Positions 24,001 to 27,000 of a DNA stretch of 64,000 bases are shown here, piece by piece. The stretch lies in contig OY970061.1 in assembly GCA_963705255.1 (NCBI GenBank), forward strand, positions 64,001 through 128,000. Reading direction: 5' to 3'. The position numbers were made by a program. Position 1 is the first letter of the stretch. Each line of letters opens with the position of its first letter. Source of the stretch: an uncultured Methanoregulaceae archaeon (GTDB lineage: Archaea > Halobacteriota > Methanomicrobia > Methanomicrobiales > Methanospirillaceae).

Positions 24001-27000
24001 ACGATGCAGTGAGCTGGTACGTGAAAGGATTTGCCCATGCCAACCTGAAACAGGGCCGCGAAGCACAAGCGGCCCTGGACAAGGCGCGGGCGATCGATAC
24101 GAAACTGTACCTTGTCCAGTACCCGTTCGGCGGCGTCCTCTATCTCTCCCGTACCTACCATCCCGTATCCGCCGATGATGCCCGGAGCCGTGCCCCCGGA
24201 CAGGGCGATGCCCGGTCCTGGTACGAGAAGGGGGTGACCCTCTACCGCGGTTACCATTACGAGGAAGCTGTTGGTGCTGTCGACCGGGCCCTTGCGCTCG
24301 ATGCCGGGACCGCCCGGTCGTGGGTTCTCAGGGGGCTCGCGCTCCATAAACTCGGGAGGTACGAAGAGTCCCTCGTCTCGCTCGGCCATGCCCTTGCATC
24401 CGATCCGGAGAACTACAAGACATGGAATATCCGGGGGCTAGTCCATAAAAAACTCCATGACCTGCCATCCGCGCTTGCGGATTTCGATCATGCACTGGCC
24501 CTCAACCCGGGAATTGCCGGCAGCTGGCTGAACCGGGGAGTTATCCTCCTCCAGCTGAACCGTGACCGTGAAGCGGTCGATTCCCTTGAGCGTGCAGTCT
24601 CCCTGGGTTCCGGGGACAGGCGGGCCCTCAACGCCCTCGCGTATGCAAAGAAGAGGGTTGCAGCACCTGCGGGCCGGAGCGTGCAGAAAAAGGGATTGCC
24701 CGGGTGACTGGTTAAGACCTGAGCAAGACTGGGTGAGGACGGGAAAAATTACTAATTAAACATTATGAGGGTTCCCCGCCTCAGGGCCTCTCCGAGGAGT
24801 CAATCGTCGCGCCAGCGAGGATTGACTGGAGAAGAATCCGCAAGGATTCTTCGACTTGCTTCATCCTGTACGGATGAAGCAGAGGAAGTTTGGAAAAACT
24901 TCCTCTTGCTGAATCTTGTAAAAGATGAGGCACGGCGGGGCAAGGAAGTTGAACCGCCGCTGGGTTAAGTTGAAAATTCTCTGTCAGAGAATTTTCTTCA
25001 GCCCGCCCTGACTATCGGGTCACGGCTGGCATCCCGTTGGGGATAATCCCACGAATGCATACTCCTCGGGAAAGTAATACAGCACTATCCCTGAGCGCAG
25101 GGAAGGTCGGGCGACATACCAGCCTGAAGGCTGGTGTGGTGCGCAGAAGATTTCCAGCGGAAATCTTCGAGGGGACAGGCACTGTCCCCTCCGTCATCAT
25201 TCATGCGTGATATTTTTTTCTAATAAAAATAGTCGGAAGAATTCTCATTCGCCCTGAACCACGGATCACTCAAATCTTCAGGAAAAGAATATTTTTACGA
25301 AGAAGAGGGAAAATAATTATTTTTTCCTTGACTTTCTCTTCATCTGCATCTGCCTGACCATACGTCCCTGGATGCCGAAGTAGTTGGAGACGCCTATCGC
25401 ATGGCACTGGTCTATAGACGCACTGTCGAATGAGACGAGGTCGCTGGAATAGATTGCGTCAGGAGAGCTCCTGCCGAGCACCCGGGCACTCCCCTTGTAC
25501 AGTTCAAGGTCAACCGTACCGTTTACCCGCTCCTGCGTGGTATCAATAAACGCATTCAGTGCCGTATAAAGCGGTTCGTACACGAGCCCCTTGTAGGCGA
25601 GTTCGGACCACGTGTCATCGACCATTCTCTTGAAGGCGAGTTCCTGCCGGGTAAGTACCAGCCCCTCGAGGTCGCGGTGGGCCAGGAGGATGACCGTGGC
25701 TGCCGGGTGCTCGTAGTTCTCCCGCGCCTTGAGGCCGAGGATCCGGTCTTCGATCAGGTCATTGCGGCCGATGCCGTGCTTCCCTGCAAGGGCGTTAAGC
25801 TTCTGGATCAGGTCGTAGCCCCCGAGTTTCTTCCCGTTCAGCGCCACCGGGACGCCGCCCTGGAAAGTAAGCGTGATCTTCGCCGGTTTATCCGGGGCGT
25901 CCTGGGGCGAGGCAGTCCAGAGATAGATCTCTTCGGGGGGGTGGAATGCGGGGTCTTCGAGGCGCCCTCCCTCGATGCTCCGGCTCCAGCAGTTCTCGTC
26001 CATGCTCCACGGCTTCTCTTTTTTGACGGGGACGGGGATGTCATGCTGCTGGGCATACTCAATCTCCCAGTCCCGGGTGAGGTTCAGTTCACGTATGGGG
26101 GCCACGACTTCGAGCCCGGCGCTGCGGATGATGAAATCGAACCGGAGCTGGTCGTTGCCCTTGCCCGTGCACCCGTGGCCTATGGCCGTTGCTCCTTCCT
26201 TCCGGGCGATCTTCACCACTTCTTCTGCTATGAGCGGGCGGGCAAGGGAAGTACCCATGGGGTAGCCCTCGTATGAACCGTTCGCCTTTATCGCCGGGAA
26301 GATATGCTCCCTGACAAACCGTTCCCGTACATCGATGGTATAATGGCGGTCGGCCATCTTTCTGCCTTTTCTGGTTGCAACCTCAATCTCTTCGTCCCGC
26401 TGGCCGACATGTACGGCAACCGTGACCACGCGATCGTACTCGTAGCGCTCCTTGAGGAGCGGGATGCAGATGGAGGTGTCAAGCCCCCCGGAATATGCAA
26501 GAACTATGGTGCCTTTTCCCATGATGGATTCCCCTTCCGGGTGATAATGCTGTACTGGTAGGCTTTCTCAGCATATATGTTGGAGGGCGCAGCAGTGTTC
26601 GCTAAAGTAGAGCGTGACCGGCTGAAACCGGAAACAGGAACGAAAAAAAATAGTTGTCCAGGTTTTTGTCCTGAACATTTATTGTAGCGGGTTTACGTGG
26701 TGACGGTGATGACTCCCTGCATTAATGGCTGGAATGTTGTTGTGTAGCCGAATGAACCGGCGACGGGGAAGGTAACCGTAAGGGGTGTTCCAAAGGGGAT
26801 CAAGAGGGCGTTCATGCTGCCAAAGTATTTCCCGGACTGGAATGCGGTTGCCTGAATGCCGTGGGGTTTGAAGGGATCGTTGTTGACAAAGACTACATTG
26901 CTGCCGGCCTTGATAGTGACGGAGGTCCCGGGAATGATGGTCCCTGCCTGGCCGAAGGTGATCGTGACGGATGGGACAGGGGTCGGCGCCGGGGTTGGTG

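Follow-up and report, generated by a model that had tools for sequence, protein, structure and literature searches.

Introduction

The REP (repetitive extragenic palindrome) and BIME (bacterial interspersed mosaic element) repeats are short, GC-rich extragenic palindromes that occur in hundreds of copies per genome, form mosaic clusters, occupy gaps at gene ends, and carry compensatory changes in their stems; they have a 5' GTAG and alternate in orientation. The BOX repeat of Streptococcus pneumoniae is built as boxA-boxB(n)-boxC. Such structured extragenic repeats have been much studied in bacteria and, to our knowledge, hardly at all in archaea.

Here, we analyze an element located at positions 24773-25045 of a 64,000-nt stretch of DNA (referred to below as the window) from an uncultured Methanoregulaceae archaeon (assembly GCA_963705255.1, contig OY970061.1, positions 64,001-128,000). 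The window belongs to one 2.60-Mb contig with a G+C content of 54.6%. The element is a 3'-truncated copy of a non-coding extragenic repeat that holds a second, smaller repeat. Our analysis leads us to propose, with middling confidence, that this is a structured modular extragenic repeat of the REP/BIME/BOX kind, which is built in two nested layers and is apparently undescribed. The last qualification is based on a search of the literature, in which no report of repeats of such kind in methanogens, including Methanoregula, was found, subscription journals being outside its coverage. When compared with Rfam 15, the whole window gave two tRNAs only. At loose thresholds, the best match in the element region scored 18 bits (gathering threshold of 63), the match with the lowest E-value (0.35) scored 15.3 bits (versus 117), and four cross-species loci yielded only a tRNA.

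Results

Architecture of the Repeat

Elements of the window are designated by capital letters (A, E, and F, and region B), and the copy at 24773-25045 is referred to as D. Hairpin coordinates are from our own scan of the window for perfect hairpins, which revealed clusters near 6000, 11000, 24800-25200, and 48000, and two matching hairpins near 51450-51530. In a BLAST comparison with the organism's own genome, each hairpin region returned 75 to 156 matching pieces.

The larger of the two repeats has a GC-rich core, which consists of a helix, P1, around a 5-bp head hairpin, a T-rich linker, and a second helix, P2, which encloses a CCCC/GGGG hairpin. Model R1, a covariance model of the core (see below), matched 54 copies in the own genome, and the 26-nt head had 43 matches there, one of which, inside an open reading frame (ORF), is a chance match. 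The simplest copies start with a 5' arm of ca. 65 nt that has a hairpin of its own (ATGAAC..GTTCA) and is followed by the lead tAyGAGGGyT. P1 (CCCCGCC...GGCGGGG) then encloses TCAGG and the head hairpin GCCyC-tnc-GrGGC, an A+T-rich linker comes next, and P2 (CCGCCGC...GCGGCGG) encloses GGGGGCG and the hairpin CCCC-gyc-GGGG. These copies end with a tail, CGTTCATCGC, ca. 40 nt of further sequence, and CGATTTTCATGG, which is an inverted repeat of CCATGAAAATCG in the 5' arm. Two single-stranded motifs, TCAGG and GTTCATC, are conserved in the core. The extra hairpins of longer copies are found at two sites only, between the head hairpin and the P1 3' strand, and within P2. Copy D is a row of eight hairpins, with five modules in P1 and three in P2; it lacks the 5' arm, the P2 3' strand, and the tail, runs on into another repeat family, and scores just 21.8 bits with R1.

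The smaller repeat is a mini-hairpin module with GA...GA brackets, NTCA or GNA loops, and module lengths of 17-33 nt that are not multiples of three. GA/GA flanks (TC/TC when the plus strand is read) were found on 330 of 5899 perfect hairpins of the own genome and were the commonest flank class (65 of 3983 in a shuffled genome); 266 of the 330 lie outside rough gene calls. A GAAG/CTTC stem base is present in 253 perfect hairpins, 169 of which have all four bracket letters and 46 more have three. The pattern GAGAAG-N6-22-CTTCGA occurs 237 times, versus 3 times in the reversed genome, and the pattern GA-stem-NTCA-stem-GA has 127 perfect copies with 59 distinct stems, versus 0 in the reversed-genome control. 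The stems of NTCA modules differ by transversions in both arms (e.g., AACTC/GAGTT, AACGC/GCGTT, and AATCC/GGATT).

The initial annotation of this locus stated that loops vary between copies on kept stems, and the variants in question are all in the sequence: gcca/gtca and gcaa/tcat on stems that are identical in copies D and A, and gtc versus ttc on GAAAATTCTCT/AGAGAATTTTC in copies D and E. It also described the loops as often of the GNA or GNRA type. Such loops exist (GNA in 58 and GNRA in about 12 of the 330 hairpins) and are a minority, G...A loops making up ca. 29%. Read in element orientation, the commonest loops are ATCA (66), GAA (34), TTCA (18), GTCA (17), GCA (11), AAA (10), GTA (7), and GCAA (7), and 105 loops are of the NTCA type.

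Predicted Folding and Covariation

The 273 nt of copy D were folded with RNA and DNA parameters and compared with shuffled sequences. As RNA, the plus strand had an energy of -143.1 kcal/mol (z-score of -9.1) and the minus strand -128.0 (z of -9.0); the values for DNA were -76.9 (z of -8.5) and -74.1 (z of -9.7), respectively. None of 200 shuffles folded as well, for either strand and with either set of parameters; folding therefore goes far beyond chance on both strands.

Measured against shuffles, the predicted folding of one strand is about as good as that of the other, which speaks for the hairpins being double-stranded palindromic protein-binding sites or cruciforms. We find this barely credible, since the stems differ freely between copies (the 127 perfect NTCA hairpins have 59 distinct ones), whereas the brackets and loops, which are asymmetric, are maintained, and a dimeric DNA-binding protein would read the arms and not the non-palindromic flanks. 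Freely varying complementary stems combined with kept brackets and loops do not fit the recognition of a fixed double-stranded palindrome and do fit intrastrand stem-loops. To this extent, the preference of the initial annotation for a folded RNA or single-stranded DNA over double-stranded palindromes stands. The part of that claim that concerns selection does not follow from the data, which may fit selection on a fold and a mutational process that restores perfect palindromes alike.

Examples of stem covariation listed earlier are present as described (TGAAC/GTTCA versus TGAAT/ATTCA, ATCCC..GGGAT versus CCCC..GGGG, and AGGTTC/GAACCT versus GGGTTT/GAACCC). To count such changes in the core, 65 cores of other genomes were aligned with MAFFT, and four helices were written as the structure. 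The P1 5' strand and most of the head had been fixed by the search pattern, and the alignment is thus biased against seeing change there. In this alignment, 96.1% of cells were paired (40-56% in slid controls), six pairs had changed on both sides (2.0 +/- 0.9 in shuffles, with 1 of 500 reaching the real value), and 18 cells had changed on both sides (3.3 in shuffles, 0 of 500). Model R1 was built from these cores and provided 115 matches in 100 loci plus the own-genome copies. In the resulting model-fitted alignment, 95.7% of cells were paired, compared to 92.5% in shuffles; slid controls gave 40-70% and at most 7 double-change pairs. Changes on both sides were seen in 17 of 23 pairs (4.4 +/- 1.5 in shuffles, 0 of 500), a count to be read with the caveats that the alignment leans to the model and that the copies are kin, and in 58 cells (8.6 in shuffles, 0 of 500). 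Single-sequence folding prefers an alternative hairpin, formed by the P1 3' strand with the P2 5' strand. Because double changes are found in six of seven pairs of P1 and in six of seven pairs of P2, P1 and P2 are favored over this alternative. In copy D, P1 was assigned by homology, as the minimum free energy (MFE) structure of the single sequence prefers other pairings. A third helix in the linker, the ends of which are complementary in some subfamilies, was also considered and dropped, with a mean of 5.5 for the real pairs versus 5.2 for cross-paired controls.

Strand Polarity

In 28 head-to-tail elements, the modules are co-oriented with the core (21 versus 0), and adjacent bracketed hairpins have the same orientation in 59 cases and opposite orientations in 15. 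The element strand was the lower in energy in 28 of 28 cases with RNA parameters (mean of -95.9 versus -88.1 kcal/mol), in 27 of 28 when G.U pairs were forbidden, and in 24 of 28 with DNA parameters; the MFE structures contain 133 G.U pairs on the element strand and 75 on the other strand. A linker run of five or more T residues is found in 34 of 65 cores, versus an A run in 4 of 65 (13 of 31 and 3 of 31, respectively, in the own genome); copy D has no linker T run. At a variable pair of the head, where the search pattern allowed all four combinations, we counted T-A 116, C-G 19, T.G 11, and C.A 0 times in the own genome and other loci. Brackets, module co-orientation, lower energy, and the one-sided T-rich linker show that the polarity of the repeat is fixed. 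For the earlier view that one specific strand folds, the evidence is mixed: the polarity agrees with it, and the opposite strand of copy D, with a z-score of -9.0, folds too.

At the sequence level, GA stands opposite GA in the 330 bracketed hairpins, which would allow tandem G.A/A.G pairs. In 24.5% of the 330, the helix runs on past GA.GA, which then forms an internal tandem mismatch. A reading of this motif as a kink-turn (K-turn) was tried and rejected: a 3-nt bulge followed by a canonical stem was found in 9.1% of the hairpins, a frequency equal to that of other offsets, with no peak.

In principle, the core could encode a structured small RNA that acts in trans and is expressed from a promoter of its own, the GA-bracketed hairpins being protein-binding modules on display. 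The multi-helix build with its covariation, the conserved single-stranded TCAGG and GTTCATC, the T run after P1 in about half of the copies, and the possible tandem G.A at the hairpin base all agree with this. We hold it to be very unlikely, given that there are tens of copies per genome, which differ widely in content and many of which, copy D included, are truncated, that no archaeal TATA/BRE promoter element at a fixed distance was recognized (by eye only), and that K-turn geometry is not found. Somewhat less unlikely, and still improbable, is a related scheme, according to which the GA-bracketed mini-hairpins would be a class of their own, 17-33 nt in length, entering GAG^G-type sites in one polarity by means of a new kind of enzyme or RNA-level process, and exchangeable arrays of them would be displayed as protein-binding sites on the core, which would act as a conserved archaeal scaffold RNA.

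Turnover and Means of Spread

The nearest relative, genome G041, is the sole sampled genome that keeps synteny (the product of a neighboring gene is 97% identical); beyond it, synteny is lost at both loci tried, with 1 of 29 other loci syntenic at each. Between the own genome and G041, four of four cores are in place, and four of four are different inside, hairpin cassettes having been gained, lost, or exchanged. At the site of copy D, G041 agrees in the head, the P1 3' strand, the linker, and the P2 modules, and has a wholly different P1 cassette, which is the one present in window copies E and F. The stretch 25103-25233 is absent in G041, and contigs of two DNA sequencing runs also join 25102 to 25234. 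Judging by the coordinates of high-scoring segment pairs, the G041 copy of A is without 6166-6384, and the G041 copy of the minimal element (head at 2965) is ca. 70 nt longer and has P2 modules. At a second locus, G041 has two modules between CTCCGAGG and CACGG, where the own genome has none; the insert can be written as GA...GA, and CGAG is found to the left of both junctions. Microhomology of 1-4 nt flanks the cassette insertions and deletions. Among the contigs of four DNA runs, some have other cassettes or lack 25103-25233, and none shows an empty site of the whole element, as contigs break inside the repeats. These data fit a process in which cassettes are reshuffled between copies faster than the copies move.

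A search for the Y1 transposase (PF01797) produced no matches in the own genome, while control genomes were matched, and none in five other genomes of the genus, among them the three with the most 5'-arm motifs; of these five, three are incomplete. The own genome has three TnpB-like genes, and none adjoins an element.

The core could alternatively be a classical MITE (miniature inverted-repeat transposable element), moved in trans by a DDE transposase acting at its ends, the inner hairpins being passengers. The 12-nt inverted repeat CCATGAAAATCG/CGATTTTCATGG near both ends of many copies points in this direction, as do the full inverted 5' arm of ca. 65 nt found in two copies only, a copy number that ranges from 0 to 124 within one genus, contigs of the richest genome that end in the motif, as expected for recent near-identical copies, and the position of elements between called genes in both orientations. 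We nevertheless judge a MITE to be quite unlikely. The 12-nt repeat is near-terminal at the 3' end and lies internally, ca. 45 nt from the end, on the 5' side. In the own genome, ten 5'-arm matches extend into the arm sequence, and each of the ten lies beside a core or the remnant of one and not beside a transposase gene; the two convergent arm pairs examined in another genome (G056) are each two elements arranged tail to tail, with the second repeat family between them. No partner insertion sequence with the same ends was found in the own genome or at the G056 pairs, the search of other genomes not being exhaustive. At the flanks read, no target-site duplication was seen, nor did any empty site turn up. 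Since the nearest relative split off, the cores have stayed in place at four of four loci, and, finally, the internal helices of the core covary, which those of a passenger need not do.

Distribution

Of 24 other genomes of the genus, 22 have the head region, compared with none of 16 genomes from other genera of the order. With one genome per species, the head pattern matched at least 117 loci, nearly all of them in metagenome-assembled genomes (MAGs) titled Methanoregula, Methanoregulaceae, or Methanomicrobiales. The 5'-arm motif is present in 42 of 47 genomes of the genus, including the own genome, in 1 to 124 copies, and a backward control gave at most one match. The module pattern GAGAAGAACNCNTCAGNGTTCTTCGA, with up to two mismatches allowed, has 72 copies in the own genome and 27, 10, 3, and 1 copies in four other members of the family, two of these four being from other genera; 98 genomes of other families gave no match. 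The two repeat classes thus differ in their distribution. No match to the head was found in viral contigs.

In genome G056, the richest in the 5'-arm motif with 124 matches, several contigs begin ca. 60-250 nt from the motif, and the repeat evidently breaks short-read assemblies. Among 80 titles listed, three MAGs with the head are titled as bacterial (L019, L062, and L085; Dehalococcoidia, Nitrospirota, and Rokubacteria). The flanks in L085 encode proteins that are 61% identical to proteins of the own genome; therefore, at least this contig end probably comes from an archaeon and was misplaced in binning or assembly. The same hairpin module is repeated at fixed periods of 107 nt (G064:C1:1890505-1890744) and 55 nt (G125:C1:938537-938672) in minisatellite-like arrays, one of them in another genus of the family and one in another species of the genus.

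In the own genome, 41 of the 43 head matches lie between rough gene calls, with 14 in convergent, 5 in divergent, and 22 in tandem gaps (20%, 19%, and 61%, respectively, of gaps genome-wide). No trend in hairpin orientation was seen along the chromosome, GC skew being unusable and the origins unknown. Of 42 real heads, two are located past 1.81 Mb of the 2.60-Mb contig, though hairpin modules are evenly spread.

RNA or Single-Stranded DNA

The meaningful unit of the repeat would be a single strand of fixed polarity (the GA strand), that is, a row of independent stem-loops closed by P1 and P2. We give slightly less than even credence to the form of this proposal that we prefer, in which the fold acts in RNA; a fold acting in single-stranded DNA is entertained more tentatively. 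In the RNA form, the stem-loop blocks would be part of read-through transcripts or of transcripts of the repeat's own and would stop transcription or protect RNA 3' ends; about half of the cores would supply a U run behind them, an arrangement that would resemble an archaeal oligo-T terminator with its preceding hairpin. Spread and reshuffling would proceed as in bacterial REP/BIME or BOX, with copies recombining or slipping against one another where they share short sequences, among them the CGAG before the insertion point and the GAGAAG/CTTCGA brackets. The ability of each hairpin to fold independently would account for the persistence of the repeat between genes. In favor of RNA are the closing helices, which are long and covary, the T runs on one strand, and the contrast between T.G and C.A in head and P2 hairpins.

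A number of observations weigh against this reading. The strands fold with the same z-score, the plus strand being more stable in absolute energy and not in z-score, and about half of the cores are without the T run. Since the copies are kin by descent, all counts given above overstate the number of independent events. In tandem gaps, the element is sense 11 times and antisense 11 times, which speaks against an obligatory role in the transcript of the upstream gene. The searches for Y1 and a partner insertion sequence identified no means of spread. The claim that mismatches on the element strand are G.T rather than A.C holds at the variable head pair (11:0), in core helices without pattern-fixed cells (G.U 39, A.C 22; p = 0.04, uncorrected for relatedness), and in P2 with its apical hairpin in other genomes (28 versus 6). 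It fails in own-genome cores (11 versus 16), and the ratios for distinct one-mismatch modules, 19:10 for NTCA (p = 0.14), 11:8 for GNA, and 2:4 for GNRA, are not significant, nor is the 18:9 obtained when at least six pairs were required; modules do exist that have A.C on the element strand. Overall, the counts neither establish nor clearly contradict equal frequencies of the two mismatch types, the excess of G.T being weak and uneven. Further counts (19:14, 9:4, and 248:292, the last with a large control background) were swamped by chance hairpins and are not used as evidence. G.U pairs are rare, at ca. 2% of paired cells in the core, which looks more like DNA hairpins or young copies than like an old structured RNA. 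Finally, C-GNA-G triloops, which are a hallmark of stable DNA mini-hairpins, account for 58 of the 330 bracketed hairpins. The rarity of G.U, the near-parity of A.C in modules, these triloops, and the lack of a preferred direction with respect to genes point to DNA or to copies that are young and unselected.

An explanation in terms of DNA only would be that hairpins extrude in single-stranded DNA during replication or repair, are kept perfect by intrastrand template switching (quasi-palindrome correction), and multiply by slippage and ectopic recombination, with brackets and loops shared by descent and with no RNA or host function. This we regard as unlikely, though it is the alternative that we take most seriously. 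In addition to the triloops, the 11:11 split in tandem gaps, and the small excess of G.T over A.C in modules, with its reversal in own-genome cores, it would account for the predominance of perfect stems (127 perfect copies of NTCA modules versus 50 with a single mismatch), the tandem arrays with fixed periods in other genomes, and the microhomology at cassette insertions and deletions. That the element strand is the better folder with DNA parameters as well agrees with it. Template switching is strand-neutral, though, and leaves the polarity of brackets, loops, and modules, the 11 T.G versus 0 C.A in the head, and the one-sided T runs unexplained; nor is there a chromosomal orientation bias of the kind that lagging-strand exposure could give. 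Moreover, P1 and P2 covary across up to ca. 250 nt of inserted hairpins, which would be unusual for transient DNA hairpins.

Annotation of the Window

Features of copy D and of the other copies in the window are listed in Table 1.

Table 1. Features of copy D, its flanks, and other copies of the repeat in the window.
Feature	Position	Strand	Basis and remarks
Conserved lead aTTATGAGGGTT (consensus tAyGAGGGyT) before the core	24762..24773	+	Copy comparison; 5' arm of ca. 65 nt of many copies absent here
P1 5' strand CCCCGCC, partner 24934-24940	24774..24780	+	Model R1 and pair counts
Head hairpin GCCTC tcc GAGGA (consensus 3' arm GAGGC)	24786..24798	+	Pair counts
Module 1: AGTCAATC-G-TCGC gcca GCGA-G-GATTGACT	24798..24827	+	Folding; loop gtca in copy A; occupies the P2 site in other copies
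Module 2, GA-bracketed mini-hairpin: GA-GAAGAATCC gcaa GGATTCTTC-GA	24829..24854	+	Scan, folding; 7 identical genome copies
Module 3: TGCTTCATCC tgtac GGATGAAGCA	24857..24881	+	Hairpin scan, folding
Module 4: AGAGGAAGTTT ggaa AAACTTCCTCT	24881..24906	+	Hairpin scan, folding
Module 5: TGC-TGA-ATCTT gtaa AAGAT-GAG-GCA, internal purine-rich loop	24907..24932	+	Folding; variants in other copies
P1 3' strand GGCGGGG	24934..24940	+	Model and pair counts
Short linker caaggaagttgaa	24941..24953	+	Longer and with a T run in about half of copies elsewhere
P2 5' strand CCGCCGC; 3' partner and tail GCGGCGGCGTTCATC absent	24954..24960	+	Motif listing; 21.8 bits with R1
Module 6: GAAAATTCTCT gtc AGAGAATTTTC	24972..24996	+	Scan, folding; loop ttc in copy E
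Module 7: imperfect 11-bp hairpin GCC.GCC.TGACT atcg GGTCA.GGC.GGC, one T.G pair	24999..25030	+	Folding; homologues in other copies
Module 8: ATCCC gttg GGGAT, counterpart of the core CCCC-gyy-GGGG hairpin	25031..25044	+	Folding; helix 5 of the alignment
Piece of the second repeat family (...gtaatacagcactatc...gcgcaggg...)	25045..25102	+	Often 3' of the core in other genomes
131-nt stretch with three further hairpins (25118-25135, 25146-25168, 25169-25191)	25103..25233	+	Absent at the site in the nearest relative
Copy A: full element, 5' arm, head 6021, tail 6386, 3' inverted repeat	5951..6454	+	
Minimal copy without modules, head 2965	2887..3118	+	121.9 bits with R1
Copy E: full element, head 48350	47903..48420	-	
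Copy F: truncated, head and P1 modules only	51430..51556	-	
Region B: array of hairpin modules and third repeat type, without core	11020..11440	-	

Copy D lies within a 609-nt gap, where an ORF of 753 aa (plus strand, 22446-24707) and an ORF of 401 aa (minus strand, 25317-26522) converge; both nested repeat classes are present between these genes, at 24762-25233. The second structured repeat family (...cgcccccc..gcgcatgcgat..ggtaatacagcactatcgca..ggggcg...), a piece of which follows copy D, often begins immediately 3' of the core and includes a hairpin of the GGGGACAGgcaCTGTCCCC type; it is also seen at L164:360-530, L165:390-560, and many other loci. A third repeat (..ctctcccccagagggggaggcagcccaaggggagcatccccttg..), with two GC-rich hairpins, is found at 11255-11365 in region B and adjoins cores in several other genomes (loci L021, L023, L026, L038, L104, and L117). 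Upstream of a minimal core at ca. 352000-352140 of the own genome, there are about six tandem 21-nt units (GTATTGTTTACCAACTTATCG) that are unrelated to the hairpin repeats. Three stretches of the window (5001-6000, 9001-11000, and 18001-21000) have a low G+C content of 40-47% (ca. 58% elsewhere), and contigs of other DNA runs skip 18174-19507 and parts of 9503-10836; low-G+C stretches left uncovered in this way may be strain-specific islands.

Discussion

Most of the genomes sampled from a genus of peat and sediment methanogens carry the repeat family described here. Nothing in Rfam matches it, and the transposase that explains REPs was not found in the genomes searched. The family displays a clear split between a stable scaffold and fast-changing hairpin cassettes. 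With these properties, it offers a workable system for studying the multiplication of tiny palindromes and the molecule, RNA or DNA, in which they act. On the practical side, the repeats break assemblies and would yield false small ORFs and false calls of non-coding RNA.

Among known systems, yeast mitochondrial GC clusters and Rickettsia palindromic elements resemble the modules in that tiny palindromic units multiply and settle inside tolerant elements; the hosts and the sequences are different. The kink-turn and kink-loop motifs bound by L7Ae have, like the modules, GA facing GA at the helix base, and this on one strand only, but the combination of a 3-nt bulge and a canonical stem is not enriched in our set, and the helix continues past GA.GA in 24.5%. 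With the ends of IS200/IS605, PATEs, and REPINs, the repeat has in common strand-specific hairpins and a structure that is conserved over sequence; the Y1 transposase that defines those elements was not found in the genomes searched, and the three TnpB-like genes are not beside elements. MITEs (Correia/NEMIS, ERIC, and archaeal MITEs) are likewise small, non-coding, and multi-copy, with inverted repeats near their ends and variable copy numbers. They differ from the present repeat, in which no terminal duplication or partner insertion sequence was found at the sites examined, the 5' inverted repeat is internal, and the internal helices covary.

The closest likenesses are to REP/BIME and BOX. 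As in the REP/BIME repeats of enterobacteria and pseudomonads, short, GC-rich palindromes outside genes number in the hundreds per genome, lie in mosaic clusters, favor gaps at gene ends, and have compensatory stems. Unlike in REP/BIME, no Y1/RAYT gene was found in the own genome and five others of the genus, the hairpins have GA...GA brackets instead of a 5' GTAG, neighbors are mostly co-oriented and do not alternate, the hairpins are nested in a larger conserved scaffold, and the host is an archaeon. Like BOX, the repeat has constant end modules and a variable number of internal modules, is strongly folded by prediction, is intergenic, and spreads in a manner that is unexplained. In contrast to BOX, it has a variety of hairpins as inner modules and not one box repeated, and the modules also occur alone, in arrays, and in other genera of the family.

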